DNA of 64,000 nt from NCBI GenBank assembly GCA_018056545.1, contig JAGPFL010000001.1, forward strand, positions 11,574 through 75,573, given 5' to 3'. Both the position numbers and the translations under genes were made by a program. Positions within the stretch are counted from its first letter, which is position 1. Every line of letters begins with the position of its first letter. Below the pieces are notes generated by a model, which saw only the letters and a program-made list of their open reading frames with translations, searched no databases and was not told the DNA's origin. The stretch comes from Syntrophobacterales bacterium. GTDB lineage: Bacteria; Desulfobacterota; Syntrophia; Syntrophales; UBA8958. Positions 1-18,419 of this stretch are shown one piece after another.

Positions 1-1790
1 CGGCGGAGATTCAGGCGGCCGTCGCCGACGATGACCCGGAGCGTCGCCGGCGTGTGCTGCAGAAAGGTGAACCAGCGTCGGGCCAGTCCCTCCATATCGG
101 GATCGATTTCATAGAAGTCGAGGACATCCCCCGGACGGGTCAGGGCCCCCACCGTACCGGCCCCCAGCCCGACGGCGGCGATCCGTCGGGGGTGAGGCAG
201 GGCGGCAAAGACGTCCCCCAGACCTCCCTTGACGTGATAATACATCGTCGGCATCTTTTCCCGGTCCCGGTCCCGGAACTGGAGGCCGTGCATGGTGGAA
301 CCATGGATGAGGACCCGCACCCCCGCCGGCGCGTCCTTGTCGGCGGGAAAATCGTAGATCCGGCTCACACCGTAATAATTGCGGTGGGAGAACAAGCGAT
401 CGCCGTAGAAATTCACCCCGGATAGAAGGATCAAAATCAGATACATCGCCCCGGCCGCCCCGATCCGGCTGCTCGTGACCACCACGGATTTCACGGACCA
501 GGACAGGGAGGCGAACCGTCGGTATTTCCATCCGAAGAGAATCGTCAGGAGCCCCAGCATGAGGGGATATTCGTATATCCCGGAGAAGACGAGGGGAGCT
601 CCCAGGGTGATCGCCGCTCCCCCCAGGAAACCGCCCAGGGCGACGGCCAGGTAAAAGCCGGTGAGGCGGGAGACGGCCGGGCGACGCCGGTACAGATCAC
701 CGTGGACCATGACGCAGAGGGCGAAGAACGCCAGCAGCAGCAGGACGTGAAACAACCAGTGGCTGGCGGGGATGACGTACAGGATGAAGCCGAGGATGAT
801 GACCTCCGGCCAGAGGTACATGACGGCGAGGGAAAACCGGTCGCCGTCCCGGAAGGTGATGATGAAGCTCGCCAGATAGAGAGCCAACGGCAGCACCCAG
901 ACGAGGGGAAAGGAACCGATCTCCATGGCGATGAGATTGGTGACGGTGACCAGCAGGGCGGAAGAGATGAAGCTCAGCAGCAGCCACCAGGGGTATCCCC
1001 TGTCCCGTACGACTTCAGCCTTGGCGGGCGGCGCCCCGACCATGATATCGGTTGAGCCCTTTTCTCGCGGGCCCTCAGGGGACGTTTCCGGATTTACCTT
1101 TGTTTCCGGTCCGGAAGCAGACGGCGGTTTTCCTCCCCCTGTTCCGAAGATCCCGTTCCCGCCCGTTGCTGAGATAACCTCTTTCGGCGAACCGTCCAAG
1201 GAGGTGTCCGGGGCGGTGCCGAGCCGGGGGCGGAGAAAGCGCCAGACGCCGGCCGCGGCCAGCAGGTAAACCACATAGCCGCCGCTCCAGATGAGGCTCT
1301 GGGTGCGGAGACCCAGGAACGGCTCCGCCAGGAGGGGGTAGCCCAGCAGGGCCGCCAGAGAACCGGCGTTGGAGGTGGCGTAGAGGATATAGGGGTTGAA
1401 GACCCGACCGAGAGACGCCCGGGCCACCCAGAGCTGGACGACGACCACCGTGGTGGACAGCACCGCGAAGGGCAGGGCTATGTTCCTGGTCAGCGCTGTC
1501 AGGAGCGCCCATACCTCGCCGGTGGGGGCGATCTCCGCCGCCATCGCCAGGGGGAGATCGGACAGGGGCAGCAGGAGGAGCGCCAGATGCCAGCGTCCCA
1601 GTCGGCGGGCCAGAAGATGGGCGTAAAGATACCCCAGCAGCAGGAGGAACTGGAAGTACATCAGGCAGACCAGCCAGATGTGCACCGCTCCGCCGAAGTA
1701 GGGGATCAGGAGGCGGCCGGTCAGGGGTTCCAGGCTGAACAGCAGAAAAGCGCCCAGAAAGACCATGATGTGGAGGAGCAAAAGGCCCAT
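1..1790 (-). CDS. Fused polytopic membrane / spermidine-synthase-like (SAM-MTase fold) protein, partial (C-terminus beyond left edge)
   Basis: Absent from the ORF track because no stop lies inside the window. Hand translation of the minus strand from ATG 1790 (in-frame TAA 21 nt upstream) stays open to position 1: MGLLLLHIMVFLGAFLLFSLEPLTGRLLIPYFGG..., several TM helices, a Gly/Pro/Ser linker (about 1270-1045), a second TM block, then soluble ...IHGSTMHGLQF...RIAAVGLGAGTVGAL...DFYEIDPDM...VIVGDGR. The last part is the GxGxG/acidic-loop pattern of SpeE-like enzymes. Confidence 0.75.
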   Translation of the reverse strand, partial: MGLLLLHIMVFLGAFLLFSLEPLTGRLLIPYFGGAVHIWLVCLMYFQFLLLLGYLYAHLLARRLGRWHLALLLLPLSDLPLAMAAEIAPTGEVWALLTALTRNIALPFAVLSTTVVVVQLWVARASLGRVFNPYILYATSNAGSLAALLGYPLLAEPFLGLRTQSLIWSGGYVVYLLAAAGVWRFLRPRLGTAPDTSLDGSPKEVISATGGNGIFGTGGGKPPSASGPETKVNPETSPEGPREKGSTDIMVGAPPAKAEVVRDRGYPWWLLLSFISSALLVTVTNLIAMEIGSFPLVWVLPLALYLASFIITFRDGDRFSLAVMYLWPEVIILGFILYVIPASHWLFHVLLLLAFFALCVMVHGDLYRRRPAVSRLTGFYLAVALGGFLGGAAITLGAPLVFSGIYEYPLMLGLLTILFGWKYRRFASLSWSVKSVVVTSSRIGAAGAMYLILILLSGVNFYGDRLFSHRNYYGVSRIYDFPADKDAPAGVRVLIHGSTMHGLQFRDRDREKMPTMYYHVKGGLGDVFAALPHPRRIAAVGLGAGTVGALTRPGDVLDFYEIDPDMEGLARRWFTFLQHTPATLRVIVGDGRLNLR

Positions 1791-1808
1791 GTTTTTCAGG
1801 ATACGCCC

Positions 1809-2846
1809 TTACCCCCCACCCTCACCCAGTTCTGTGCAGACGGCAGCCTCTCTTGACTCTCTTATCTTCCATTGCTTTTCCGCTACCTGCTCTTTAACGA
1901 TCTCGAGGGTTTGATGTATGATCTCCGTCATGTCGCCGTCGATGTCCCCTTTGGCCTCCGCCAGAATGCCGTCGACGACCTTCCCCGCCAGTTCATGGAG
2001 GATATGGTCGTTTTCCGGCAGGTGAATGTCCTTGAAGACCTTGTCCAGGCTGTGAAAGGCGATGTCCGCCGCCATACTTTCCACCCGCCGGGAGATAAGT
2101 CTTCCGGCGCCGGGTATCTTTTCCAGAAGCCGGATGTCTTCGCTGCTGGTCAAGGCCTTGCGGATGCATCCTTCTATATAAACGCGCAGATCCTTTTCAA
2201 AGATCTCGTTCATGTCCCGGGCCACCAGCCGCAGCTTTTCCACGAGGAGTTCCGTGAGGACCTGGCGCCTCGGTCGGATCACCTCCCGGACGACTCTTTT
2301 CAGCAGCGGTGTCCCGGCCTGGAGCTCCCGCTGCATGTCCGTCAGGACATTGATCACGACCCGGTCGGAGATCTCCTCCATAATCACGTCCCGGTATTTG
2401 TGATATTTTCGGAAGAGGTAATGGTCGATGCGCACCAGTTTCTGGAGTCGGGCGAAAAAGGCGATGAGCCGGAGAAGACGCAGCCACCGGAATCCGCCGG
2501 GGAGACTGCCCAGGAAATCGTAGATGTGTATGGCGGGATAGAAAAACCCGCGGTGATACTCCTTCCAGTGGACGGACAATCCCCAACGGAGGAAAAATTC
2601 CAGGAGGAAGATTACGGCGAAGACCAGATCGTAAGACCAGTATTTTACATGGATGGGTTCGTAAAAGCGGTACAGCCGCGTCAGGTTTTCCCGGACGAAT
2701 TCGTGGAAGGGCGGGAAGGAGAAGGTCCAGTCGCAGACCATCCAAGCGAGGTTCACCAGCAGGATGACGATCATGACGCCGTCGATCATGATCATGATCT
2801 TCAGGCGTTTCTGGCCTTCGGTATGGCAGTTGGGCGGTTGGTTCAA
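1809..2846 (-). CDS. Voltage-sensor-domain (S1-S4) protein of the ion-transport family lacking a pore module, with ~215-aa cytosolic helical domain
   Basis: 345-aa ORF with four TM segments, including S2-like YDLVFAVIFLLEFFLRW, S3-like IHIYDFLGSLP and Arg-periodic S4 FRWLRLLRLIAFFARLQKL. No S5-P-S6 follows. The stop lies 18 nt upstream of the SpeE-like gene start on the same strand. Confidence 0.65.
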   Translation of the reverse strand: MNQPPNCHTEGQKRLKIMIMIDGVMIVILLVNLAWMVCDWTFSFPPFHEFVRENLTRLYRFYEPIHVKYWSYDLVFAVIFLLEFFLRWGLSVHWKEYHRGFFYPAIHIYDFLGSLPGGFRWLRLLRLIAFFARLQKLVRIDHYLFRKYHKYRDVIMEEISDRVVINVLTDMQRELQAGTPLLKRVVREVIRPRRQVLTELLVEKLRLVARDMNEIFEKDLRVYIEGCIRKALTSSEDIRLLEKIPGAGRLISRRVESMAADIAFHSLDKVFKDIHLPENDHILHELAGKVVDGILAEAKGDIDGDMTEIIHQTLEIVKEQVAEKQWKIRESREAAVCTELGEGGG

Positions 2847-3049
2847 CGTCGCTCCTCACACGGAGACCTTTGAAAAACGGCTGCGCTGCAGTTCAGAAAT
2901 CTTTTTTTTCTTTGTACGGGTAACGTATAACTCTTATTCATGGCCGATACCATTTTCCCGAGGTTATGTTGAGCTTACACACCTTTCCCCGATTGTTTTC
3001 TCTCGGCCAAATACCAAGCCCAGCGGCATCGTGGCAACATGCAGGGCTT

Positions 3050-3246: not shown

Positions 3247-4602
3247 ATGTTAAGAAAACTTGCGTCATTCTTTACCTACGTTATGCGTCATTATCTACCC
3301 GACGCCTACCTGTTTGCCATCCTGCTGACGTTTATCTCGGCGGTCCTGGCCCTGATCTTCACGCCGGCGGACGTCTTGAAAGTGATCACCACCTGGGGTG
3401 ATGGGATCTATGGAATCATCGCCTTTGCCATGCAGATGATCCTCATCCTGGTAACGGGATACGTCCTGGCCCTGACACCGCCCATGAAGAAGGTCCTCGA
3501 TTGGGTGGCGGAAATGGCCGACACCCCCGTCAAGGGGGCGATGATCGTCGCCTTCGTGGGCGGCGTGGGCTCCTGGATCAACTGGGGCTTCGGCCTCATC
3601 TTCGCGGGGCTCCTGGCCCTGGAGGTCGCCCGTCGCACCAAGAAGGCCGATTTTCCCGTCCTCGTCGGTGCCGCCTATAGCGGGTTCATCTGCTGGCACA
3701 TGGGGTTCTCCAGCTCCATCGGGCTCCTGCTGGCCACGCCCAAGGCACCCCAGAACCTCATCGAAAAGATCACGGGCAAGGTTGTACCGGTATCCGATAC
3801 GATCTTTGCGACCTGGAACCTGATTCCCGCCGCGATCATCATCCTCGGTCTCCCGGTGCTCTTCTATCTGATTCATCCCAAGGAGGAAGATACGATCAGC
3901 ATCTCCCCGGAACGTCTCAAGGAGATGGAAGGACAGACCGTCAAGGTTGAACGGCCGGCGAATCCCACCCTGGCGGAGCGGATCGACCACAGCTATGTGG
4001 TCAACATGATCTTCGCCGCTATGGGCGTCTTCTACCTCTTACTCCACTTCTCCAAGAAGGGCCTGGATCTCAATCTGAACATCGTGATCTTTATTTTCTT
4101 CATCGCCGGTGTCATCCTCCATGCCAAACCTATCAATTACGTAAACGCTATGAATATCGCCATCCGGTCCGCCGGCGGCATCGCCCTGCAGTTTCCCCTC
4201 TACGGCGGCATCATGGGGATCCTCATCGGCACCGGCCTGGCCAAGGTCATCGCCGGGTGGTTCGTGGCCATTTCCACGCCGGAAACCTTTTACATGTTCC
4301 AGTTCTGGGGGGCCGGGGTGGTCAATATGTTCGTCCCCTCCGGCGGCGGTCAGTGGGCCGTTCAGGGACCCATCACCATCGAGGCGGCGAAGATGATGAA
4401 CATCGATACCGTCAAATCGGCGATGATGGTGGCCTGGGGGGACCAGTGGACCAATATGATCCAACCCTTCTGGGCCCTGCCGCTGCTGGGACTGGCGGGA
4501 CTCTCGGCCAAGGAAATCATGGGTTACACCACCATGACGCTGCTCTGGGCCGGGCTGGTTTTGAGCGGTTTCGCCCTGCTTATCGGTTTCGGGGTGATGT
4601 GA
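3247..4602 (+). CDS. atoE: Short-chain fatty acid transporter (AtoE family)
   Basis: 451 aa, polytopic, colinear with E. coli AtoE as I recall it (WGDG..., AFxMQMxLIxVTG, VPSGGGxWxxQGP, GDQWTNMIQPFWALP). AGGAGGAGG RBS 7 nt upstream of the ATG. Confidence 0.85.
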   Translation: MLRKLASFFTYVMRHYLPDAYLFAILLTFISAVLALIFTPADVLKVITTWGDGIYGIIAFAMQMILILVTGYVLALTPPMKKVLDWVAEMADTPVKGAMIVAFVGGVGSWINWGFGLIFAGLLALEVARRTKKADFPVLVGAAYSGFICWHMGFSSSIGLLLATPKAPQNLIEKITGKVVPVSDTIFATWNLIPAAIIILGLPVLFYLIHPKEEDTISISPERLKEMEGQTVKVERPANPTLAERIDHSYVVNMIFAAMGVFYLLLHFSKKGLDLNLNIVIFIFFIAGVILHAKPINYVNAMNIAIRSAGGIALQFPLYGGIMGILIGTGLAKVIAGWFVAISTPETFYMFQFWGAGVVNMFVPSGGGQWAVQGPITIEAAKMMNIDTVKSAMMVAWGDQWTNMIQPFWALPLLGLAGLSAKEIMGYTTMTLLWAGLVLSGFALLIGFGVM

Positions 4603-4866: not shown

Positions 4867-5152
4867 GCTGCTCATAGCATCGTTTTGTGCGATCAAAAAT
4901 GAAAACAAGAAACACACAGTATGGGAAAACCCGATTACGGTGCGGGTGTTCTTGCTCGTTGTCACGGCTTACGGCGGTGGGTTGCCGGCCCGGCAGATCA
5001 TCAAGGACCGTCCCTGTGGGGGAAAAGATCCCTTGCCGGTGCAGAAGGTTCCGGCAGTGAAACAGTATGACCGGTTCAAGGAAGCTATCAGCTCCCGGCA
5101 GCCGATGAAAATACATCCATCGCAAAATTATTGACCGCCCTTGGAGGTGCAC

Positions 5153-6292
5153 ATGTCCGACAAGACCGCTTCCTCATCCCCCATCACCCTCCGGTTGGCC
5201 ATTATCGGTGCCCGGGGCGTTCCCGCCAATTACGGGGGGTTCGATACCCTCGTGGAAGAGCTGTCCCTTGGTCTGGTGCGCGATCACGGTCTGGAAGTGA
5301 CCGTTTATTGCCGGAGCGACTACTATGAAAAGCGCCCTCCTTTCGTGGGGGGAGTACGTTGTGTCTATATCCCCTCGACGCGGATCAAAGGTTTCGAGAG
5401 TCTCTTCCATACATTTTGCTGTGCCGTCCATGCCTTTTTCGCGCCCTTCGACATCTACTTCGTCGTCGATCCCGGCAATGCCCCTGTGGTGGTCCTCCTG
5501 AGGCTCGGCGGCAAGAAGACGGCGATCCACACCGATGGTCTGGGATGGAAGCGGACGAAGTGGGGCAGGCTGGCACGGAGGTATTACCGATGGGTGGAAT
5601 GGCTCGCCGCCAAAGGGGTGCGGCAAATCGTGACGGACAACCCGGCCATGCAGGAATACTACCGACGGGAGTACGGAACCGACTCGATATGTATCGCTTA
5701 CGGATCAGAAGACCGATACGGTTTGGATCCCACCGTTTATGGGGAAGTGGGGGTGACTGCAGAACGATATCTGCTGGTCGTGGCACGTCTGGAGCGGGAA
5801 AACAACACCGATATCGTCATTCGGGAATATGTCGCAGCGCGGGTGGAAATGCCGCTGGTCATTGTCGGCGATGCCCCTTATGGGGATGAATACCTGAAGG
5901 AACTCCATAGACTGGCCGACGAGAAGGTCATCTTCGCCGGACGGGTAAACGATCAGGGGAAATTGAACGCCCTTTACAGAGGGGCGTATCTCTACCTCCA
6001 CGGTCACGAAGTGGGCGGGACTAATCCCTCGCTCCTCCGGGCGATGGGGCTGGGAACGGTCCCCCTGGCGGTGGATGTGGATTTCAATCGCCGGGTTGTG
6101 GGTGAGCAGGGGTATTTTTTCCGGAAAGATCCGGGAGATCTGGCGGGAATGCTGTCGCGCCTCGTCGCGACGCCCGGAGAGGTGGCCCGCATCCGGTCCG
6201 GCATTGGGGAATGGACCCGAAGCCGTTATTCCTGGAAGGAGGTGGTGGCCCGCTATGCCGATTACTTCCGAGAACTGGCGGTACTGCGATAG
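5153..6292 (+). CDS. Glycosyltransferase family 4 with DUF1972-type N-terminus
   Basis: ORF 5141..6292, with the start moved to ATG 5153 (GGAGG 5 nt upstream). N-terminus RLAIIGARGVPANYGGFDTLVEEL; C-terminal GT1/GT4 region HGHEVGGTNPSLLRAMG. Confidence 0.8.
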   Translation: MSDKTASSSPITLRLAIIGARGVPANYGGFDTLVEELSLGLVRDHGLEVTVYCRSDYYEKRPPFVGGVRCVYIPSTRIKGFESLFHTFCCAVHAFFAPFDIYFVVDPGNAPVVVLLRLGGKKTAIHTDGLGWKRTKWGRLARRYYRWVEWLAAKGVRQIVTDNPAMQEYYRREYGTDSICIAYGSEDRYGLDPTVYGEVGVTAERYLLVVARLERENNTDIVIREYVAARVEMPLVIVGDAPYGDEYLKELHRLADEKVIFAGRVNDQGKLNALYRGAYLYLHGHEVGGTNPSLLRAMGLGTVPLAVDVDFNRRVVGEQGYFFRKDPGDLAGMLSRLVATPGEVARIRSGIGEWTRSRYSWKEVVARYADYFRELAVLR

Positions 6293-6475
6293 GGAGAGGA
6301 GAGCAGGGGGCGATTTTGACCTCGTGAGAACTTTGCCTGACTGCGAAAAAATGGTTTGCCGGCAGCGAAGCAAAGGTTTTTCTCCCCTTTGTTGTCGAGC
6401 TTAACACCTTGTAATGAATAAAATTATACGCAGACCACATAACCGAATCATGGCGGAGGCATACAGGAGGCGGCC

Positions 6476-7252
6476 TTGAAGGAAAGAGAGCTCTATGCGG
6501 CGCCACGGATGATAACGGATATCCGGGACTGTGCCTTCTACCATTCCATGAACATTCCCGGTTATGGAGAGATAAAAGGGGACTGGGATCTGCGGGGCAT
6601 CGAGCATCGCTATCTCGGCGGGGTGGATTTCCGGGGTAAGCGGGTTCTGGAGATGGGAACGGCGTCGGGATTCTTCTGCTTCTATATGGAGCGCCAGGGG
6701 GCTGAGGTCGTCTCTTTCGATCTTTCGGAGGATTACAACTGGGATGTGGTCCCTTTCGCCGGTTTCGACCACGAGCGGATCCTGGCGGAGCGCCGGGAGG
6801 CGATCAGGAAACTCAACAACGGCTACTGGCTGTGTCATCGCGTCCACGGCTCCCGGGCCCGGGTCGTCTATGGCAACATCTACGAGCTGCCGATGGAAAT
6901 CGGACCGGTGGACATCGCCACCTTCGGATCGATCCTCCCGCACCTGCAGAATCCCTTTCTGGCCCTGCAGAAGGTCCTGTCCCTGACCCGGGAAACGGTG
7001 ATCGTCAGTGAAACCGTCTGGAACCGGTATCTGATCAACCATCTCCTCAGTCACTTCACCCCGCCGCAGGCCACCTTCGTTCCCCGGTTCCGGACGCTGG
7101 AGAACTGGGATACCTGGTGGTACCTGCCGCCGCCGGTGTTGAAAAACTACCTCGGCGTCCTGGGCTTCCGCCGGACCAAGGTGCGCTATTTCTTCAACCA
7201 CTATCGGGGCCGCCGCCGACTGGCCTATGCCCTGGTGGGTAAAAGACAATAA
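6476..7252 (+). CDS. Class I SAM-dependent methyltransferase
   Basis: 258 aa; TTG start preceded by AGGAGG. SAM motif I VLEMGTASGFF and acidic loop VVSFDL. Confidence 0.7.
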   Translation: MKERELYAAPRMITDIRDCAFYHSMNIPGYGEIKGDWDLRGIEHRYLGGVDFRGKRVLEMGTASGFFCFYMERQGAEVVSFDLSEDYNWDVVPFAGFDHERILAERREAIRKLNNGYWLCHRVHGSRARVVYGNIYELPMEIGPVDIATFGSILPHLQNPFLALQKVLSLTRETVIVSETVWNRYLINHLLSHFTPPQATFVPRFRTLENWDTWWYLPPPVLKNYLGVLGFRRTKVRYFFNHYRGRRRLAYALVGKRQ

Positions 7253-7281
7253 TTACGTAAAGATATAGTGCGGAGAGATAT

Positions 7282-8502
7282 GTGATCAGGGATCCCGTAA
7301 AAAAACGGCTCGCCCATTTCGTGGATCGCCTCCTCGGGGGGTGGGTGTGGATCCGCCGGTTTCTGGGGGTGAAATATCCCCGGTGCGACAGCCACGTCGC
7401 GGAGAACATCGAGCGCATCCTCGTCGTCCGCCTCGATCATATCGGCGATGTCATCATGACGACGCCGGTCTTCCGCCTTCTGAAGGAACGCTACCCCGCT
7501 GGGCGGATAACCTGTCTGGTAGGTTCCTGGGGAAAGGCGGTGGTGGAAAACAATCCCCACATCGACGAAATCCTGATCTACGATGCCCCGTGGTGGACGA
7601 AATCCCGTCCGGAAGGGAAAAGGTCGGGCTTTACTGTCCGGGGACGGGAACTTCTCCGCCTCCTTGCCGAGCTGCGACGACGTCGCTTTGATCTTCTCCT
7701 CGACCCCCGGGGCGATTTGCGCCACCTGTTTTTGTTCGGTTATCTGGGGCAGGCCAAGTACATCCTGAGTTATGACCGGACCGGGGGGCGATATCTCTTG
7801 GCGGCGGCCACGGCATTTGTGGAGGCAAGCCATGAAATCGACAAGGCCGTCCGGCTCCTGGGCCATTTGGGGATTGCGGTGACCAAGGTGTCTCCCCGGG
7901 TGGAGATCTATCCTGATACCTTGCAGGAGGCATGGGCGGAATCGTTCCTCCGGGAACGGAAGCTCCAGGGGCGGCCCCTGTTCATCTTCGCCCCCGGCGC
8001 CCGGAAGCACCTGAAGCGATGGCCGGAAAAGAACTTTGCCGCCCTGGCGGACTGGCTGCTGACCTGTCGTCCCCCAGGCGTCGTGGTGTTGGCGGGGGCA
8101 TCCTGGGATCGAGAGGTCGCCGCCCGCATAAGGGAGCAATCCCGCTGCGCGGAAGGAATAATCGACATTACGGGCCGGCCGGATATCCTTTCCCTCTACG
8201 CCCTAATGAAACGCTCCCGGCTCATCGTCGCCAATGACGGTCCCATCGCCCACATGGCCTCGGCCCTGGATATTCCGCTCGTCGTCCTCTTCGGTCCTGT
8301 AGAGATGGAGAGATTCCGGCCCCGTGGGGAGCGGAGCGTCGCGATCCAGCATCCGTTCCCCTGCAGCCCCTGCCTGTTGGAAGACGATCGCTGCTCCGTC
8401 AGGAAGTCCGTCGCCGTTCCTGGAGCCTGCATGGAGGCCATTACCGTGACGGAAGTGCAAAGTCACATTGAGGCGCTTTGGGGATACGAAGAGGGGAAGT
8501 AA
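7282..8502 (+). CDS. Glycosyltransferase family 9 (heptosyltransferase-family)
   Basis: 406 aa. ILVVRLDHIGDVIMTTPVFRLLK and VANDGPIAHMASALDIPLVVLFGP are the two hallmark GT9 segments. Confidence 0.8.
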   Translation: MIRDPVKKRLAHFVDRLLGGWVWIRRFLGVKYPRCDSHVAENIERILVVRLDHIGDVIMTTPVFRLLKERYPAGRITCLVGSWGKAVVENNPHIDEILIYDAPWWTKSRPEGKRSGFTVRGRELLRLLAELRRRRFDLLLDPRGDLRHLFLFGYLGQAKYILSYDRTGGRYLLAAATAFVEASHEIDKAVRLLGHLGIAVTKVSPRVEIYPDTLQEAWAESFLRERKLQGRPLFIFAPGARKHLKRWPEKNFAALADWLLTCRPPGVVVLAGASWDREVAARIREQSRCAEGIIDITGRPDILSLYALMKRSRLIVANDGPIAHMASALDIPLVVLFGPVEMERFRPRGERSVAIQHPFPCSPCLLEDDRCSVRKSVAVPGACMEAITVTEVQSHIEALWGYEEGK

Positions 8503-8564
8503 AGTTGTTGATTTAATGATTTTAAATAGTTGATGAGGTATTTTACAATGAAAGGGAAACGCTG

Positions 8565-9560
8565 TTGAAAGAGAAAACCTACATTCGGGAGATGCAGGCG
8601 GCCCGGGGGGCGGGCATTATCCTGGTCGCCCTCGGGCACAGCGAGCCCGTCCGGGAGGCGTATCCCCTGCTTTTTTCCTGGATTTACAGCTTTCACATGC
8701 CACTGTTTTTTCTTCTTTCCGGCTTCTTTTCTTCCCGCCTCACCCAGGGCGGCCCGGCGTGGGAGGTCGGGAAAAATGTCTTGCAGAGGGTTTCGTACCT
8801 ATTTGTCCCCTATCTTACGGTCAGCATCGCCTACGCCGCCCTGAAATACTTCGTTTCCCCCTTGGCCAAAAGGCCCGTCGGCCTGGCGAACCTTCCCTGG
8901 GACATCCTTCTTTATCCCGGCAACAACCCCGCCCTCTTTCTCTGGTTCATCTACGCCCTCATGATCATGTGGCTTTTGGCCCCCCTTCTGGCCCGTCTGC
9001 CGGCGGTTCTCCTCCTGCCCCTCCTGGCGCTGAGTCAGATGTTTTCGCCCGACATCCGGATTTTTGGTCTGGGCAACGTTTTTCATTTTGTCGTGTATTA
9101 TTATCTCGGCATCCTGGCGGCGGCAAGAAAAGATGCGATATTGGTATTTGTCGGCAAGGAGGTGGTCTGGGGGGGCTCCCTGGTGCTGCTTGTGGCCGGC
9201 AATCTCGTGACCCCGGTCCGGTTAATCCCCGGTTTTGAGATGACCGTGGCCGTCGCCGGGAGCGTTTGGATCATCTCCTGTTGTTTCGTCTGCCGGGAAA
9301 GGCTCCCCATGTCTTTTTTCGAAACTTGTGGGCGGTACTCGCTGCAGATCTATCTGCTGCAGTATTTCTTCATCTTTCCCCTCTATTTTCTCCTGAAATC
9401 CCGGGGCGTTCCCGGGGAAGGGATCGTCCCGGCGACCTTCGCCGCGGGGCTGCTCGCGCCGCTGGCCCTCTGCCGCTGGGTTTTCCCCCGCACCGCGGTG
9501 CTCGCTTTCCTGCTCGGCGGCCGTGACTTGGAGGGTCCGAAGGTCGGTCGTCGTTCATGA
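8565..9560 (+). CDS. Membrane O-acyltransferase (Acyl_transf_3 family)
   Basis: 331 aa, about 10 TM. ARGAGIILVALGHS and HMPLFFLLSGFF motifs; TTG start as in the ORF track. Confidence 0.75.
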   Translation: MKEKTYIREMQAARGAGIILVALGHSEPVREAYPLLFSWIYSFHMPLFFLLSGFFSSRLTQGGPAWEVGKNVLQRVSYLFVPYLTVSIAYAALKYFVSPLAKRPVGLANLPWDILLYPGNNPALFLWFIYALMIMWLLAPLLARLPAVLLLPLLALSQMFSPDIRIFGLGNVFHFVVYYYLGILAAARKDAILVFVGKEVVWGGSLVLLVAGNLVTPVRLIPGFEMTVAVAGSVWIISCCFVCRERLPMSFFETCGRYSLQIYLLQYFFIFPLYFLLKSRGVPGEGIVPATFAAGLLAPLALCRWVFPRTAVLAFLLGGRDLEGPKVGRRS

Positions 9561-9677
9561 TGACATAGGGCGAGTCTGGGGCAAGAATGACCCGCAAGGC
9601 TTACCCCGACAAAATATGTAGGGAGATGCTATGTCGTCGGCCCCTATGTGCACCGGGAGGAACGGGAGCGACCAGAA

Positions 9678-12110
9678 TCAATTGCCCGGGCGGGCCGCCA
9701 GGTATCCCCAAGCGAAGGCGTTGGGGGCGATGGTCTGGTGGATGGTGAATTCGCACATCAGGGGATGCCAGAACACATCCCAGTAATTTTCTATGATCGG
9801 CCACTTGTCCGCCTCGGGATAGCAATACTTGCCCGCCTCCTGGTGTTCGCGGTTTTTGCCTCTCCCGCTCCAGTTCGGGTCGAGGGGGCCGAACACGGTA
9901 AGGCCCTCCGGGGGCAACTGGCCGCTGAACCGGGAGTCAAAATGGAGGATATGACGGGGATTCTTGTGCCCAATGCCGGTGGTGTAGCACATATTCCGGG
10001 GGTTGGCGCCGGCCCCGGTCTGGGCGGCGAGGAGCACGGCCCTTAAATACTCTTCCTTTCCCGTCAGGACGTGGGCGAAGATCAAGCACAGGGCGTCCGG
10101 GGTGGTAAAGGCACCGGCGACGGCGGGGCGCCAGGGATTCTTCGCCAGCCGGAAGGCGACCTTCTCCTGGGCGGCGAGACGGATGGCCGCTTCCTCCAGG
10201 ATGGCCTCCCGGCACCGGCGCTGGAGAAGGGGATCGACGCCGCGGCCGGAGAGGCGGGCGTACACCCATGCCGCTTCCGACTGGTCATGATGGCCGTGCC
10301 AGACCAGGGGTTGTGAGGGGTTCCTGAAGACGGTGGTCGCTGCGAACAGTCTGTGCCATCCCGTCTCCCCGGTCAGCCGGAACAGCTCCACCGCCGCCAG
10401 ATTTCTGGCATCGCGGACCTCCGGAGGCCAACTATCCTCCCTTTTCTCCAGAAAGACCTTTTCCGCCCATACCGCCGCCCGTCGGGCGCTCTCTGCATAA
10501 ATCGCCCCCATACGGGGGTTCCTTCCCGGCCCCTGAAACCAGAACGCCGCCCGGGTGGCCGCCCCGGCATAGAGATAGGATGACCAGACATCGGGGGCGT
10601 ATGCCATCAGTATGCCCGTTTCCCGCCAGCTTGTCTCCCCGAACCGGGGATGCCGGGAGGATTCCACGCCGCCCCTGACCGCGCCGTCCCGGTCCTGAAG
10701 GCGGCGGAAGAAGTCGATCCCCCAGAGGGCCTCGTCGATGATGTCGGGAAAATCATCCTTTGTTTTTGGGATGTTGAGAGGAAGGCGGGAAAAATAATCG
10801 GGGAAGAGGAGGGCCAGATCGAGGAGCCTCCGGGCCCCTTCGAGATGCTGGATCCGTCGGTCCCAGTCCCCGGCGTCGCTGTATCCGCCCCAGGCATCCG
10901 GCAACAGTTGCTCCGTCCTGCCGGCGAGGAGGCGGGAAAAGGGCTCCTCCTCGTTCTGCAGAAAGCCATTGGTCGTCTCCATGAACGGGGTGGTAGATTG
11001 ATAGACCCGTTTCCCGTCTTCCGGATGCATGTTCCGCGGGCGCCGGTACCCGGTCCAGGGCGGCCCCAAGGCGATGCCGCTGCGTTGGTGATAGAACCCA
11101 CGTGCCGAGACGATGAAGGCCTTTTCCCATACCTTCGTTCCGATCTCGAAGGGATACGAGCAACCCACGTTTTCTACATACAGGCGGTAGAAGCCGGGGG
11201 TGCGCAAGGGGCTGAAATCCAGTTCATAGACGTCAACACCATTGAAATTTTTGCCGAATGCGTCTTCATCCAGTTCCCCCGCCTTCTTTGTCAGGCGGAT
11301 CTTTCCCCGCCAGACCTCTTTCTCCGTTCCTTGTTCGATGACCGAGAAAGGGGTTTCCTCCCGGAAGGCCATCCCGCCGCCGCTGCCCATCCAGAGCGAC
11401 AGGAATCCGGTTTTGACAGGATCGTCGGGGCGGAAGCCGAGGTGGTTCACATGGACGGCCTCGCTTCTCATGAGGCGGGGTTGCCAGGTGAAGTTGATCC
11501 CGGGCAGCTCCCCGCTGCGGAAGGTGAGACGGTAGGTAACCCCCTGTCGGAGGGGGCGGGAAAAGCGCAGATAAACGGTATGTTCCCGAGGTGCTTCCAG
11601 ACGTTCCCGGCTCACCCGCAGAAGATCGGCGGGGCGGCTCTTGCGATAAACCGTTGTCGGTATCAGCCCCTGGCCGATGGCGGCATCCTCGGACGATGTA
11701 AGTTGGTAGTTCTGCGGATCGTCAAGCCAACTGCCTGATATTCCTTCCCCCGCCAGACGGTCGAGGGGGACGAACCACTTAGCCCCGGGGCCCACCAGGA
11801 CGCCGACGATCCGGTCGCCCCGGATCAGCCAGTCGTTCCCTTCAGCGTCACGTTCGATCCGGTCTTCCGCCCGGCCCTCGTAAGGAAGCTGACGGCCCCG
11901 TTCCCCCGCGTGGGCGAAGACCACGCTGATGGTATCCGGTCCGATGGCGCCCACGGAAATATCGGCGGCGGGCTGCGTTTCAAGTCTCGCCGCCGGGGGT
12001 GGCGGGGAGCAGGAGGCGGTGGAAAAGGAAATGCCGGCCAAAGCGAGGAGCGATATAAAAAGCGATGGCAACAGACGGCCATTACTCCTTTTCCGGGACC
12101 ACATCGTCAC
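9678..12110 (-). CDS. Glycoside hydrolase family 9 lipoprotein with N-terminal Ig-like domain
   Basis: 810 aa. Lipoprotein signal LLALAGISFSTASC. GH9-type segments WGGYSDAGDWDRR, TTGIGHKNPRHILH and CEFTIHQTIAPNAF. The GTG start overlaps the upstream stop (GTGA). Confidence 0.8.
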   Translation of the reverse strand: MTMWSRKRSNGRLLPSLFISLLALAGISFSTASCSPPPPAARLETQPAADISVGAIGPDTISVVFAHAGERGRQLPYEGRAEDRIERDAEGNDWLIRGDRIVGVLVGPGAKWFVPLDRLAGEGISGSWLDDPQNYQLTSSEDAAIGQGLIPTTVYRKSRPADLLRVSRERLEAPREHTVYLRFSRPLRQGVTYRLTFRSGELPGINFTWQPRLMRSEAVHVNHLGFRPDDPVKTGFLSLWMGSGGGMAFREETPFSVIEQGTEKEVWRGKIRLTKKAGELDEDAFGKNFNGVDVYELDFSPLRTPGFYRLYVENVGCSYPFEIGTKVWEKAFIVSARGFYHQRSGIALGPPWTGYRRPRNMHPEDGKRVYQSTTPFMETTNGFLQNEEEPFSRLLAGRTEQLLPDAWGGYSDAGDWDRRIQHLEGARRLLDLALLFPDYFSRLPLNIPKTKDDFPDIIDEALWGIDFFRRLQDRDGAVRGGVESSRHPRFGETSWRETGILMAYAPDVWSSYLYAGAATRAAFWFQGPGRNPRMGAIYAESARRAAVWAEKVFLEKREDSWPPEVRDARNLAAVELFRLTGETGWHRLFAATTVFRNPSQPLVWHGHHDQSEAAWVYARLSGRGVDPLLQRRCREAILEEAAIRLAAQEKVAFRLAKNPWRPAVAGAFTTPDALCLIFAHVLTGKEEYLRAVLLAAQTGAGANPRNMCYTTGIGHKNPRHILHFDSRFSGQLPPEGLTVFGPLDPNWSGRGKNREHQEAGKYCYPEADKWPIIENYWDVFWHPLMCEFTIHQTIAPNAFAWGYLAARPGN

Positions 12111-12679
12111 TCCGTGACCTTGCCGGCATTGGCCGGGGAATCGGGTTCCACATGGACCTCGCTGCCGCCGAAATAGGGGAAATCATCCCCTTGGTGACAA
12201 ACTATGTTCGGTACGGCCACCCAGTAGCAGGTATGGAAATTGACGGGACGGACGGGAATCATGGCGAAGGAGAAACCGTCGCAGTGAAACTCCGGCAGCC
12301 GTCCCCCCTGGAGAACCGCCTGGTCGGGGTTGTTGACGAAGGTATCCAGATCGTGTTGACAGGAGAAAACCGGGGTTCCCTTAGTCAGGGGGACGAACTT
12401 CTTCTCCTGCATCATCTTGACGAAGTGGATGTGGAGGGGGTCGTTGTGAAGATCGATGTCCTTCAGGGGCTGGGAGAATTCGGATTCTCTGGGCATCAGG
12501 GTGCTGTAGGTCCTGTTCTCATGGGCGAAATAGCGGCAGACCCTTTCCACCTGGTAGGGTTGCAGCACCCCGAAGCAGTTTTTGGAGATGTAGCAGCGAC
12601 CGGCGAGAGTCGGGATCGGGGTCAGGATAATCAGGCAGGCGGCCGCAATCAGAAGTGCTTTTATGACGATGGTCTTCAT
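12107..12679 (-). CDS. Exported Cys-rich hypothetical protein
   Basis: ORF 12107..12721, with the start moved to ATG 12679 (signal peptide MKTIVIKALLIAAACLIIL). That ATG overlaps the Wzx-GNAT stop as ATGA. 190 aa, 8 Cys, no motif I recognise. Confidence 0.55.
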   Translation of the reverse strand: MKTIVIKALLIAAACLIILTPIPTLAGRCYISKNCFGVLQPYQVERVCRYFAHENRTYSTLMPRESEFSQPLKDIDLHNDPLHIHFVKMMQEKKFVPLTKGTPVFSCQHDLDTFVNNPDQAVLQGGRLPEFHCDGFSFAMIPVRPVNFHTCYWVAVPNIVCHQGDDFPYFGGSEVHVEPDSPANAGKVTE

Positions 12680-14691
12680 TCGGGCATCCCTCTGCCGATC
12701 TTGTTCATGATCCAGGGCCAACGAAAGAAACTCACCAAAGAATTATACACCGGCCGGACCCCTCTGCTCAAATAGAAATGGAGGGCCGGCAGACGAAAAT
12801 CGTCGGTCAACATCAGGATCTCTTCATAGCCTGCTTCGGGAAAATAGGCAAGGGTCCGGAAAAAAAGCACCTCCGCCAGTCCCCGATGGCGATGCTCCGG
12901 ATGGATGAAGAACCACGATCCGTAACCTCTTTTTCTGGTCGTGGAGGCGTCCTGACAGGCGCAGAAGCAGCCGACCAGACGCCCCCGGAAATAGATCAGC
13001 GTCGCCGCCCCGGGAGCCACCAGACAGTCCACGATTTCCCTCTGTACCCGGGCGGCGTCCCACTTTCCGAAGCTGCCGTCGGTGTTGAGAAGCGCAGCCC
13101 ATTCGTCATAGTCCGTATCGGCATCGGGGGAAGCGACCCGATATTCGCCGGGTAGCGTCCATTGCCTCCCCCTTCCCCGTTGTGCCACTTCTTTTGGGAC
13201 CCGCAGCATGAGCTGGGGGAAGTAGATGAAACCGGCCAGATATTTCAAGATCCTCCCCAAGTGGCGCAAATCGTCCCCAAAATCGAGGCAGGAGATGAAT
13301 TTTGCCATCCCTTCCCGGGGCAGCAGGCGGAACAGGAGCACCGCACCGATGTAGGCGCCGAGGGCGACGGAAATATGGATGAGCGGGGGCAGCCAATCCG
13401 GCCGGTGGTGGAGGAAAAGGCACAAGCCGGCGTTGACGATGACGATTTTCAGCCAGTTTCCGGGTCGGAGGACATTACCGAAATGACGGATAACGAAACC
13501 GGCGGTGATGGACATGAGGAAGATCTCGCAGGCCAGGGCGGCCCAGGCCGAGCCGGCGGCGCCCTGGGAGGGGACGAACAGGTAGTTGAGGGCGATGCTC
13601 AACAGGGCGCCGGCACCGGTGCTCCAGGAGGCGAAATGGACTACCCCCAGGGCGACGGCCAGGGCGGTGAAAAAAAGGGAATAACAGATCAGGAGCCCCA
13701 CCCAGGCCAGGATGTCGAGGACGGGGGCGGCGGGGATAAAGGCCGGGCCGTAGAGGAGACACAGGATCTCGGCAGAGACGAGGGGGCACAGGAGGGCCAC
13801 GGGGATGCCGAAGACGGCCAGGACCTCGAGGGTCAGGGAGAACTCCTCTTTAAGAACCGCCCTTTCCGTTTCCATCCGGGCCGCATAGATGGGGATGAAG
13901 GGACCGGTGATCATCGCCGCGCCCATGGCCGTAAGTTCGACGAACTTGAAGGCGGCGTTGAACAGTCCGACCTCCGCCATGGATCGGAGGTCTTCGAGGA
14001 CGAAGATCGCCGCCCGGCCGGCGATGATCGTGAAGATCGAGGCGATCCCCAGGGGGGCGGCGACGGCGAGGATCCTCTTCAGCCACGGCCAGGCGACGGC
14101 GAAGCGGGGCCGGAGGATCCGCAGGGAGACCCCGAAGGCGGCGGCCAGATAAACGGCGTTCGCCAGACCGTAGGCCGTAATCAGCCAGAGGAGGGAGGGG
14201 TGGAGCCAGAAGGCCAGGCCGGAAAGGAGGAGGAAACTGCTGCCGTAGACCAGGGAGGTGGCGGAAGAGTACCAGGGGCCGTGGAAGACCTGATAGACCG
14301 GTTCGAAGAAGCGACTGGCCAGAAAAGGGATGAACAGGGCCCCGACAACCAGTACCGGGTGGAGGTCCAAGGTGAGAAAGGGCAGGGTCGCCACCGCCAG
14401 GATAGTTACCAGGACGCTGATCGCCAGACGCAGGACGAGATAATTACCCCAGTAGACCGCTTTGGCTTCGACCTGGGCGATGTCCTTTCCCAGCACGGAG
14501 GTCATGCCGAAATCCGCCACGGCGACGGCGACGGCCAGGAAGGAAAGGACATAGGAGTACTGCCCGAAGAATTCGGCGCCGCACAGCCGGGCAACGAGGA
14601 CAAAAACCAGCAGATTGGCCCCGAAGGTCGCGCCTTTGCCGACTCCCTGGGCGACGACGTTGGTGACGTAATTTTTGATGGTCGCCGCCAC
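12676..14691 (-). CDS. Wzx-type (MOP superfamily) polysaccharide flippase fused to a C-terminal GNAT-like acetyltransferase domain
   Basis: ORF 12676..14991. The first 100 codons overlap degT and are Arg/Pro-rich, so I moved the start to GTG 14691 (GGAGA 6 nt upstream). The protein then begins AATIKNYVTNVVAQG, as Wzx proteins do. About 12-14 TM, followed by a soluble ~150 aa with GNAT-like LIYFRGRLVGCFCA...WFFIHPEHRHRGLAEVLF. Confidence 0.75.
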   Translation of the reverse strand: MAATIKNYVTNVVAQGVGKGATFGANLLVFVLVARLCGAEFFGQYSYVLSFLAVAVAVADFGMTSVLGKDIAQVEAKAVYWGNYLVLRLAISVLVTILAVATLPFLTLDLHPVLVVGALFIPFLASRFFEPVYQVFHGPWYSSATSLVYGSSFLLLSGLAFWLHPSLLWLITAYGLANAVYLAAAFGVSLRILRPRFAVAWPWLKRILAVAAPLGIASIFTIIAGRAAIFVLEDLRSMAEVGLFNAAFKFVELTAMGAAMITGPFIPIYAARMETERAVLKEEFSLTLEVLAVFGIPVALLCPLVSAEILCLLYGPAFIPAAPVLDILAWVGLLICYSLFFTALAVALGVVHFASWSTGAGALLSIALNYLFVPSQGAAGSAWAALACEIFLMSITAGFVIRHFGNVLRPGNWLKIVIVNAGLCLFLHHRPDWLPPLIHISVALGAYIGAVLLFRLLPREGMAKFISCLDFGDDLRHLGRILKYLAGFIYFPQLMLRVPKEVAQRGRGRQWTLPGEYRVASPDADTDYDEWAALLNTDGSFGKWDAARVQREIVDCLVAPGAATLIYFRGRLVGCFCACQDASTTRKRGYGSWFFIHPEHRHRGLAEVLFFRTLAYFPEAGYEEILMLTDDFRLPALHFYLSRGVRPVYNSLVSFFRWPWIMNKIGRGMPE

Positions 14692-14809
14692 GATCAGTCT
14701 CCGGGAAACAGGTGATTGTTCGCAGACCACAGCGGCCGGCGCCGCCGCGGGGCCGTTTTCCTTGGCCCCTTCCGACGGTGCCGGCCGGCGCCGGCGGTGG
14801 TCGGGACGA

Positions 14810-16039
14810 TCATGCCAGCACCCGGCGAAAGGCCGTGATGACGTCGGCCACATCGGCGTCGGTGAGGGCCGGCGACAACGGCAGGGAAATGGTGCGGGCG
14901 CCGATCCATTCCGCCTGGGGAAACATCCCCTCCTTCCAGCCGTAGGTCTTGCGGTAGAAAGGATGGGAGTGGATGGGCAGATAATGGACACCGACGCCGA
15001 TATTCTCTTTCCCCATGGCCTCCAGGACCCAGTCCCGGGACCTGCCCAGCCGTTCCGTATCGATCAGAGGCGTGTAAAGATGGTAGGCATGACGGGTGTC
15101 CGGCTCCGGCGGTGCGGGGAGGAAACAGGGCAGGTCGGCGAAGGCGTCGTTGTAAGTCTTCCAGATCTCCTCGCGCCGCCGCCAGTTGTCTTCGATCCTC
15201 GCCAACTGGTGGATCCCCAGGGCGGCCTGGAGGTCCATCATATTGTACTTGAAGCCCCCGAAGACCACCTGGTAGTGACGGTAGCCTGCATCGGAGAAGC
15301 GTTTCCAGGCGTCCTTGCTCATCCCGTGGAGGGCGAGCATCTTGAGGCGGTTGGCGGTGCGCTCGTCATCGGTGACCACCATGCCACCTTCACCGGTGGT
15401 CATGTTCTTGGTCACATAGAAGCTGAAACAGCCCATGTCGCCGTCCGTCCCCGCCTTGCGGCCCCGGTATTCGCTCTCGATGGCATGGGCGCAGTCTTCG
15501 ATGATCATGAGGTCGTAACTCTTCGCCAGATCGAGCAGCGGGTCCATGTCACAGCACCGGCCGGCGAAGTGGACGGGCAGGATCGCCCTGGTCCGGGCCG
15601 TGATCTTCTCCTCGACGAGGGCGGGGGAGATATTCATGTTTTTACGGTCGCAGTCCGCCAGCACCGGGGTGGCCCCGCAATGGATGATGGCGTTGACGGT
15701 GGCGCAGAAGGTCATGGGGGTGGTGATTACCTCGTCGCCCGGCCCGACCCCCGAGGCCAGCATGGACAGATGGAGGGCGGCGGTGCAGGAATGGACGGCG
15801 AGGGCATGCCGCTTGCCCTTGTAGGCCGCGAAGGCCTCCTCGAATTCGTGGGCCCGGGGGCCCGTGCCGATCCAGCCGCTCTTCAGACACGCGACCACCG
15901 CGGCAATTTCCTCGTCGCAAATCTTGGGCGCCCCGAAGACCAGGAAATTCTCCGGATTCCGCACCGGTACCCCGCCGGCGATCGCGGCTTTTTGCACTCC
16001 CCTTCCGGCTCTTTTTCTCTTTCCTTTTTCCGGCATCAT
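14810..16039 (-). CDS. DegT/DnrJ/EryC1/StrS-family sugar aminotransferase
   Basis: ORF 14810..16084, with the start moved to ATG 16039 (AGGAGG RBS). Motifs HSCTAALHL, DEVITTPMTF and FSFYVTKNMTTGEGG (PLP-lysine region). Confidence 0.85.
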   Translation of the reverse strand: MMPEKGKRKRAGRGVQKAAIAGGVPVRNPENFLVFGAPKICDEEIAAVVACLKSGWIGTGPRAHEFEEAFAAYKGKRHALAVHSCTAALHLSMLASGVGPGDEVITTPMTFCATVNAIIHCGATPVLADCDRKNMNISPALVEEKITARTRAILPVHFAGRCCDMDPLLDLAKSYDLMIIEDCAHAIESEYRGRKAGTDGDMGCFSFYVTKNMTTGEGGMVVTDDERTANRLKMLALHGMSKDAWKRFSDAGYRHYQVVFGGFKYNMMDLQAALGIHQLARIEDNWRRREEIWKTYNDAFADLPCFLPAPPEPDTRHAYHLYTPLIDTERLGRSRDWVLEAMGKENIGVGVHYLPIHSHPFYRKTYGWKEGMFPQAEWIGARTISLPLSPALTDADVADVITAFRRVLA

Positions 16040-16275
16040 GTTCGACCTCCTCGCACCCTGATTATCCCTTTCATATCCCCCCACCTATGATTTCATAAAA
16101 CTTTTGATACTATTCCCTATCATAAACCATCTTTCTTTTTTCCTTGATCGCCCCCTCCCGCCGGCCAGGGGAAATTCCGGTGGGGACGTACCGCCCTGTG
16201 TCGGTCATCCCTCTTGTCGTGGCGCTTTCCGTCTGCGGGCCCGCGTCTTGGGAAGTCCTTTGCGGGATGAAAGGC

Positions 16276-18403: not shown

Positions 18404-18419
18404 GGTCTTGTCTCCATGA

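Follow-up and report, generated by a model that had tools for sequence, protein, structure and literature searches.

The 64,000-nt stretch of Syntrophobacterales DNA analyzed here (hereafter the window) carries at its left end two adjacent genes on the minus strand, referred to as gene A and gene B. Gene A encodes a protein of 345 amino acids (aa) that is probably a member of a large, uncharacterized bacterial family, in which a stand-alone S1–S4 voltage sensor is followed by a helical cytoplasmic domain of about 200 aa, with no pore and with gene B as an incidental neighbor. As read from the alignments, the predicted sensor has a complete charge-transfer center and three S4 arginines. The object of interest is the gene A family rather than the operon, and its relevance lies in channel evolution and bacterial electrophysiology.

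Gene A occupies positions 1809–2846 of the minus strand as an open reading frame (ORF) with a TTG start and a TAA stop at 1809–1811. In GenBank it is MBP8979623.1, a “hypothetical protein” of 345 aa from a Syntrophobacterales metagenome-assembled genome. The initial annotation, made from the DNA letters and their translations, had described a 345-aa ORF with voltage-sensor motifs in S2, S3, and S4, and all of these motifs were found in the translation: FLLEFF at aa 80–85, YDFLG at aa 109–113, and FRWLRLLRLIAFFARLQK at aa 119–136. A Shine-Dalgarno-like GAGGAG was read at 2852–2857 (minus strand), 5 nt 5′ of the TTG, and the first 17 aa were conserved among Syntrophales homologs in the alignment; the long TTG start was favored because of these two features. 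For the same reasons a shorter start at M18 (328 aa), the choice of some gene callers, was dropped. The gap of 18 nt given in the initial annotation between gene A and the next ORF was borne out by the coordinates: the spacer (1791–1808, minus strand) runs from the gene A stop to the gene B ATG at 1790 and contained no terminator-like site. Gene A and gene B were identical in metagenomic contigs L001 and L002. Both are real genes and not chance ORFs, with 472 cluster representatives in the gene A family and both genes annotated in GenBank.

The 472 cluster representatives were recovered at E ≤ 1e-3, and 195 of them at E ≤ 1e-30, by exhaustive profile search of a library clustered at 50% identity. 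A single-sequence word-indexed search with gene A gave 24 relatives, none with a Pfam domain. The peptide pattern [HY][WF]YD[VLI][LI]G[CSL][ILF]P occurred in at least 600 stretches of a species-representative genome collection, and tblastn confirmed at least 589. Taxonomy and gene neighborhoods were surveyed in the best 80 of the at least 589 confirmed loci. Represented among these 80 were the Bacteroidota, Gammaproteobacteria (Alcanivorax, Ketobacter, Moraxellaceae, and Oleiphilaceae), Calditrichota, Spirochaetes, Myxococcota, and Desulfobacterota (Desulfobacterales). A family member was also found in Gimesia (Planctomycetota).

Most gene A homologs were about 335–360 aa long, and the listed full-length ones were about 315–385 aa, or 445–490 aa with an insertion. 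The 445–490-aa sub-family (P0255, P0257, P0261, P0264, and P0265) had an insert of about 130–150 aa in the periplasmic S1–S2 loop and otherwise kept the S1–S4 signature and the cytoplasmic domain unchanged. It is possible that the insert contributes a further sensing element outside the cell. In their source records the homologs were named “hypothetical protein” or “ion transporter” (Alloalcanivorax and Ketobacter). Other names were also in use: Acinetobacter homologs (P0363, P0378, P0380, and P0389; e.g., WP_445115083.1) were named “preprotein translocase subunit SecA” in RefSeq and UniRef, and one IMG copy of the Alloalcanivorax homolog was named “ArsR family regulator.” The SecA and ArsR names appear to be propagated annotation errors.

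Profile comparisons connected the family to voltage sensors. In individual Pfam scans of 103 diverse members, the set also used for all residue counts below, Ion_trans (PF00520) was matched by 32 at E ≤ 1 (best E = 6.1e-5), and the next most frequent Pfam family was matched by only five. Two PF00520 matches examined singly covered profile positions 4–117 of 241, which is the S1–S4 half, and left positions 118–241 unmatched; the examples given scored 13.6–15.4 bits. The PF00520 match expected from the initial annotation was therefore present, below threshold, in relatives of gene A and absent from the gene A protein itself. The membrane-domain profile of the family was aligned using hhalign to a template of five voltage sensors: NavAb, KvAP, Shaker, Hv1, and NaChBac (residues 18–133). 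The NavAb, KvAP, Shaker, and Hv1 sensor sequences matched the corresponding PDB entries at 239–385 bits. This comparison gave a probability of 90.5% (P = 1.3e-6), with controls at 6.9% for the reversed template and at most 0.9% for 30 column-shuffled templates. NaChBac was the top single-template match (83% probability). It was also the only channel, at a weak E = 8, in PDB profile searches with two family alignments, which otherwise returned C-terminal helical-repeat noise. Foldseek searches with an AlphaFold2 (AF2) model of aa 1–180 gave 14 PDB matches, none significant, of which nine were channels with a voltage-sensor-type S1–S4: CatSper, TPC1, TRPV2, GORK, KCNQ1, KCNQ2, Cav3.2, and hERG. 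The voltage-sensor-like S1–S4 proposed in the initial annotation is upheld by the S1–S4 matches to PF00520 within the family and by the hhalign result, and gene A is, to judge from these profiles, a remote homolog of the voltage-sensor half of Ion_trans.

Four helices with cytoplasmic N and C termini were assigned. This topology was based on hydropathy peaks for S1 and S2, amphipathic S3 and S4, basic residues before S1 and in the S2–S3 loop, and a soluble part after the fourth helix. S1 (about aa 19–41; 2724–2792, minus strand) was placed by its hydropathy peak and an AF2 helix at 9–43 and contains D22 (102 of 103 members), N32 (92/103), and D39 (D or E in 93/103). N32 and D39 corresponded to NavAb N25 and E32 in the per-template hhalign alignment. 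S2 (about aa 69–92; 2571–2642, minus strand) was placed by a hydropathy peak, an AF2 helix at 69–94, and the alignment. It contains the outer acid D73 (D or E in 99/103), the aromatic F80 (F or Y in 97/103), the inner acid E83 (E or D in 102/103), R87 (80/103), and W88 (103/103). The S2 spacing D-x6-F-x2-E-x3-R is that of Shaker E283/F290/E293/R297 and of NavAb N49/F56/E59/R63.

S3 is short (about aa 101–116; 2499–2546, minus strand; AF2 helices 102–106 and 108–114) and equals S3a only. It contains D110 (D or E in 102/103) and P116 (102/103), which aligned to Shaker D316 and P322 and to KvAP E93 and P99. S4 (about aa 118–139; 2430–2495, minus strand; AF2 helix 118–138 and alignment) contains R120 (R or K in 94/103), R123 (101/103), R126 (103/103), a small residue at 129 (S, A, G, or T in 89/103), R133 (R or K in 101/103), and K136. 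R120, R123, and R126 corresponded to Shaker R362, R365, and R368 in the per-template alignment. In KvAP the equivalents of the family residues were D62, D72, R76, E93, P99, R117, R120, and R123, and also R133 and K136; in NaChBac (full-length numbering) they were D60, F67, E70, R74, D93, R116, R119, and R122.

The S2 aromatic, the acid three positions after it, the S3 acid, and the outer S2 acid that define a charge-transfer center were found as F80, E83, D110, and D73. Among the nine Shaker-aligned residues (D73, F80, E83, R87, D110, P116, R120, R123, and R126), eight were kept in 91–100% of members and R87 in 78%. The S4 arginines at every third residue and the S2 and S3 countercharges, which the initial annotation had pointed out, thus align with gating charges and countercharges of Shaker, KvAP, and NaChBac. 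For the S4 arginines the alignment was full with these three and partial with NavAb and Hv1, and its register shifted by one charge between templates. Purifying selection is evident at every charge-transfer residue as well as along the post-S4 helix.

The S3–S4 connection was the region that departed from known sensors. Counted from the sequences, the S3 aspartate and the first S4 arginine were separated by 10–11 residues, compared with 19 in NavAb, 20 in NaChBac, and 46 in Shaker. P116, whose Shaker counterpart lies at the S3a/S3b break, is followed at once in gene A by the turn into S4, and hhalign placed a gap at this point. No S3b–S4 paddle hairpin reaching the outer surface was found in gene A. 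The missing paddle is one of two points that would favor reading the S1–S4 domain as a degenerate, non-sensing relic that merely anchors the cytoplasmic helices in the membrane; the other is that some eukaryotic relatives of voltage sensors, such as TMEM266, have weak or unclear voltage dependence. R123, R126, E83, and D110 were nonetheless kept in 98–100% of members across several phyla, and F/Y80 and D/E73 in 94–96%. A relic is disfavored because a plain anchor would not need buried charges, and it is the least probable of the alternatives considered here.

Several further results weigh against reading gene A as a voltage sensor that acts apart from its neighbor. The gene A protein gave no significant match to Pfam (E ≤ 1) or NCBIfam and did not reach the 25-bit gathering cut-off of PF00520, and even the best PF00520 match of any member (E = 6.1e-5; an estimated 23 bits or so) is probably below this Pfam gathering score. 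The AF2 model of aa 1–180, built from a 111-sequence alignment, was of moderate confidence (predicted local distance difference test, pLDDT, 73; predicted template modeling score, pTM, 0.59), and all of its Foldseek matches had E ≥ 1.4 and TM-scores of 0.21–0.35. The full-length model was of low confidence (pLDDT 67.9, pTM 0.37), and its Foldseek matches were all non-significant and confined to proteins with long helices, such as chemoreceptors and coiled coils. The short S3–S4 hairpin, unlike that of every characterized voltage sensor, might be incompatible with canonical S4 translocation. Lastly, gene A and gene B are separated in this genome by 18 nt with no terminator, which would be consistent with some functional link between them there.

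No hydrophobic segment was found by hydropathy after residue 140 of gene A. An S5–P–S6 pore was likewise not found, as judged from hydropathy, from the unmatched PF00520 positions 118–241 in the two matches examined, and from the lengths of the listed members. S4 is instead followed by a helix at aa 143–176 (2319–2420, minus strand; AF2 helix from 143 or 145 to 176) with the sequence EEISDRVV at aa 157–164. This was the most conserved cytoplasmic motif, with E157 in 96, E158 in 101, D161 in 99, and R162 in 90 of the 103 members. The remainder of the protein, aa 177–345 (1812–2318, minus strand), was predicted to be a soluble, all-helical C-terminal domain (AF2 helices only, pLDDT 52–79; hydropathy). 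Other conserved cytoplasmic positions were P192, P245-x-x-G248, and W326. Residues 146–345 comprised 37 acidic and 33 basic residues, and aa 143–345 were predicted by AF2 to be wholly helical. The soluble charged helices that the initial annotation had described in place of a pore agree with the hydropathy and the AF2 prediction, and no cryptic pore was found.

The cytoplasmic domain of about 200 aa had no significant family match in Pfam, NCBIfam, PADLOC, or the PDB. Matches of the DUF6285, DUF445, and TetR-C types to the C-terminal domain were rejected as noise, occurring in at most five of the 103 members. The PADLOC defense models gave no match for gene A or two orthologs. No phosphatase family was matched by gene A in the Pfam scan, and none ranked in the top 25 families by number of matches across the 103 members. 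The voltage-sensing phosphatases Ci-VSP and TPTE resemble gene A in that a sensor is joined through S4 to a cytoplasmic, non-pore output domain, whereas the gene A output domain has no phosphatase or C2 similarity and no recognizable catalytic motif.

A mechanism can be proposed for such an arrangement. A change in membrane potential would shift the S4 arginines relative to F80, E83, and D110. S4 movement would then reposition the cytoplasmic helical bundle through the contiguous helix at aa 143–176; the movement could be passed on in this way because S4 is continuous with the EEISDRVV helix. The bundle would in turn act on a separately encoded partner or alter the oligomeric state of gene A. 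S4 travel would probably be small, since the S3–S4 hairpin is unusually short.

Compared with the bacterial sodium channels NaChBac and NavAb, gene A has the same S1 N-x6-D/E, S2 D/N-x6-F-x2-E-x3-R, S3 aspartate, and S4 R-x-x-R. It differs from them in lacking the S4–S5 linker, the pore, and the C-terminal tetramerization bundle, in the shorter S3 aspartate to S4 arginine distance (10–11 residues rather than 19–20), in a main S4 repeat of three arginines rather than four, and in the added helical cytoplasmic domain of about 200 aa. Hv1 is alike in being a four-helix sensor without a pore, in having three S4 arginines followed by an uncharged residue, and in an S4 that runs into cytoplasmic helices. 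Hv1 is eukaryotic and gene A bacterial, and the C-terminal part of Hv1 is a short coiled coil, whereas that of gene A comprises about 200 aa and several helices. The selectivity aspartate of Hv1, D112, aligned to gene A N32, an asparagine as in the bacterial sodium channels (N in 92 and D in 7 of 103 members). The Hv1 motif R-x-W-R-x-x-R was absent from gene A, in which L122 precedes R123 and W121 is variable. No Hv channels had been reported in prokaryotes by a 2023 review (PMC10377628).

The likeness to Hv1 raises an alternative in which the S1–S4 domain would itself conduct protons or small cations, in an Hv1-like or omega-current-like manner, with the cytoplasmic helices serving oligomerization or regulation. 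Hv1 carries N214 at the fourth S4 charge position, and the three S4 arginines of the family are similarly followed by the small or polar residue at 129. The very short S3–S4 hairpin should thin the outer septum, several homologs are named “ion transporter” by NCBI, and the isolated Shaker voltage sensor conducts cations (PMC12332018; PMC13095418). Set against these points is the lack of the residues that Hv1 would lead one to expect, as the D112 position is occupied by asparagine in 92 members and by aspartate in only seven, and the R-x-W-R is absent with L122 before R123. In addition, F80 is intact as an aromatic plug, as are the two inner acids, and channel voltage sensors with this combination have a sealed gating pore. 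A conducting S1–S4 domain is accordingly considered unlikely.

Gene B (1–1790, minus strand) leaves the window at its left end, so that 596 of its 735 aa were translated from the window. In GenBank it is MBP8979622.1, a fused MFS/spermidine synthase. The completion of this gene to the left of the window, proposed in the initial annotation, was obtained from contigs L001 and L002, in which it encodes 735 aa; the first 596 aa of the L001 copy were identical to the window translation. Gene B was divided by hydropathy and motifs into a first membrane block (about aa 1–190; 1221–1790, minus strand), a Gly/Pro/Ser-rich low-complexity linker of about 75 aa (about aa 191–265; 996–1220, minus strand), a second membrane block (about aa 266–465; 396–995, minus strand), and the start of a SpeE/methyltransferase-like domain (from about aa 466; 1–395, minus strand). 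Full-length gene B matched the NCBIfam model NF037959, “fused MFS/spermidine synthase,” at 67.3 bits (E = 1.1e-18; cut-off 40), and the window-truncated protein matched it at 12.1 bits. The architecture given in the initial annotation, two membrane blocks and a low-complexity linker with a SpeE-like domain, agrees with the hydropathy and the NF037959 score. Its spermidine-synthase assignment held for NF037959, above the cut-off, and did not hold at threshold for Pfam, in which Spermine_synth and Methyltransf_24 were matched only below it. Also below cut-off were the polyamine aminopropyltransferase and speE models at aa 530–652 of the full-length protein (TIGR00417 speE, 1.3e-5).

The Rossmann-type motifs of gene B were VGLGAGT, YEIDPD, and LVDAFSGDG. 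The loop GGGDG of the spermidine synthase SpeE carries an aspartate, and the SpeE-like loop VGLGAGT of gene B (window 1–395; L001 3958–4770) lacks it. Because of this GLGAGT loop, gene B may not be an aminopropyltransferase and may use S-adenosylmethionine (SAM) in a methyltransferase-like way, rather than decarboxylated SAM. Gene B shares with the NF037959 family a polytopic N-terminal part, a SpeE-like Rossmann domain, and the motifs G-x-G-x-G, E-I-D, and D-A-F-S-G-D-G, and differs in its GLGAGT loop and in having two membrane blocks split by the linker of about 75 aa. PADLOC gave only a weak methyltransferase-type match (mad2, 27.5 bits). A single-sequence search with gene B returned more than 2,000 matches, many of them in Syntrophales. 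By its profile match, gene B is an ordinary member of NF037959, a family that is named but functionally unstudied.

Pairing of the two genes was surveyed by tblastn with gene B against 92 loci, including the 80 species-representative genome loci. Gene B adjoined gene A only in L001–L004, all identical to the window, and in L012, whose gene A and gene B were 79% and 78% identical to the window copies. No gene B homolog was found within 5 kb of gene A in any of the 80 species-representative genome loci. In Syntrophales relatives at 70–73% identity (L005, L011, and L096) gene A had no gene B beside it. These three loci carried a same-strand CDF cation-efflux gene (Cation_efflux and ZT_dimer; L005 6918–7886, L011 1658–2620, and L096 3774–4736) upstream of gene A, and on its downstream side gene A faced an MFS_1 or Kup gene in convergent orientation. 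In L093 a gene B homolog (72% identity over the best local alignment, about half of the query) lay directly beside a divergent short-chain fatty acid (SCFA) transporter gene with no gene A between them, and the families of its remaining upstream genes were those also present upstream of gene A in L012. In L095 a gene B homolog occurred alone, without gene A.

The initial annotation had proposed that the voltage sensor and the membrane transferase form a membrane-potential-responsive system. As a conserved system this failed, with the pair found in none of the 80 genome loci and absent from L005, L011, and L096, and with gene B alone in L093. The two genes are not a conserved functional pair, the idea of a two-gene, voltage-controlled SpeE-like enzyme is not supported, and members of the gene A family behave as stand-alone genes. 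In the window genome, gene A and gene B are probably co-transcribed. Their adjacency looks like an incidental, lineage-specific local rearrangement, since the pair occurred only in the window lineage and L012 and gene B was found alone elsewhere.

A narrower possibility is that the two genes form a functional unit within the Syntrophales lineage of the window, with the sensor controlling the SpeE/methyltransferase-like enzyme. They are on the same strand with an 18-nt gap and no terminator-like site, and L012 has the same arrangement as the window and L001, although the proteins of these two sub-lineages have diverged by about 20%. There is also a eukaryotic precedent for a voltage sensor on a transporter, the sperm Na+/H+ exchanger SLC9C1, which is the nearest precedent for a sensor controlling a polytopic, non-channel membrane protein (PMC12332018). 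In SLC9C1, however, both parts belong to one polypeptide and are never found apart, whereas gene A and gene B are encoded separately and are not neighbors in the 80 genome loci or in the next-closest Syntrophales relatives. Gene B homologs also stand alone, in L093 amid flanking families that match those of L012 and the window. The same kind of search gave more than 2,000 matches for gene B and 24 for gene A, so that most proteins of the gene B type work without gene A. A functional unit of this kind is very unlikely.

Neighbors of the family genes were compared across the surveyed loci by clustering the 428 lying within three genes and by Pfam scans of the 73 on the same strand at less than 150 nt. 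No family-wide conserved partner of gene A was found among the 428 clustered and 73 scanned neighbors, only lineage-restricted synteny. The commonest of the 73 close same-strand neighbors were QueG (nine, in Balneolales), DUF1631-GGDEF-EAL (five, in one gammaproteobacterial lineage), and HemN (five); Cation_efflux accounted for two. Kup, an Na+/H+ exchanger with a TrkA domain, and SCFA transporters were near gene A in the Syntrophales relatives at 70–73% identity, an ion-transport neighborhood that was not seen outside that Syntrophales clade.

Neighborhoods of this kind bear on whether the S1–S4 domain could be a detached regulatory subunit for a separately encoded pore or transporter, as in a split channel or an auxiliary sensor. 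Gene A follows a same-strand CDF gene in three Syntrophales loci, and Kup, an Na+/H+ exchanger with a TrkA domain, an Na/Pi cotransporter, and SCFA transporters are nearby in various loci. Split or co-assembled sensors and pores can work (PMC13095418 on Eag1; bioRxiv 10.64898/2026.08.07.743441). Across the wider family, though, no transporter family recurs (Cation_efflux, 2 of 73), and, with a conserved domain of about 200 aa on the cytoplasmic side, the output is more likely to lie there than in the membrane. A detached subunit is thus improbable, and a self-contained sensor with a cytoplasmic output is the preferred explanation.

Genes of cyclic di-GMP (c-di-GMP) signaling were observed in some neighborhoods. 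In several Gammaproteobacteria (L023, L027, L028, L043, and L052; family gene at about 5000–6000) the gene A homolog lay between a PilZ-DUF1631-GGDEF-EAL gene and an HD-GYP (HD_5) gene. The former encodes about 1,330 aa and is upstream on the same strand, and the HD-GYP gene is convergent. The window lineage has a response-regulator-PAS-HD_5 gene that lies just outside the window, to its left, and is convergent with gene B (L001 4785–6989; L012 9420–10919). The gene A family could conceivably be linked to c-di-GMP signaling.

No description of a bacterial pore-less voltage sensor or of the gene A family was found in the full-text literature, of which coverage was incomplete. According to a 2023 review (PMC10377628), a pore domain accompanies every voltage sensor yet known from prokaryotes. 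Reviews from 2024 and 2025 give only Hv1, the voltage-sensing phosphatases, and SLC9C1, all of them documented only in eukaryotes, as non-pore contexts for the sensor (PMC13095418; PMC12332018), and a 2025 review of modular channel evolution gives only eukaryotic examples of stand-alone sensors (PMC12332018). What appears to be new here is a bacterial pore-less sensor family with a minimal S3–S4 hairpin and a novel cytoplasmic domain; the sensor module itself is known. The family would fill the bacterial gap, being widespread and keeping every charge-transfer residue with no pore. Its members are candidates for the means by which bacteria read their own membrane potential, and they offer a small system in culturable organisms (Alloalcanivorax, Acinetobacter, and Ketobacter) for the study of a minimal sensor. 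In models of modular evolution, a free-standing sensor fused with a pore to give voltage-gated channels, and the family could serve as an outgroup in deciding if the module is older than its combination with pores. It is tentatively suggested that the gene A family comprises the first autonomous, pore-less prokaryotic voltage sensors. Their S4-linked helices would turn membrane potential into a signal in the cytoplasm, possibly for c-di-GMP or other networks, and these sensors might descend from a free-standing, pre-fusion sensor module.

The gene divergent from gene A, across 400 nt, encodes a full-length SCFA transporter (PF02667, E = 3.5e-137; 3247–4602, plus strand). An SCFA_trans gene was also near gene A or gene B in the Syntrophales contigs L005, L093, and L096. 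No tRNA genes and no Rfam families at the gathering threshold were found in the whole 64-kb window (1–64000). A polysaccharide biosynthesis cluster extended from 5141 to 19373. Two of its ORFs, at 14675–16090 and 16144–17088, had no Pfam match. Its other genes encoded GT4, GT9, and GT2 glycosyltransferases, a methyltransferase, an Acyl_transf_3 protein, a GH9 hydrolase with CelD_N, and a 771-aa flippase fused to a GNAT acetyltransferase.

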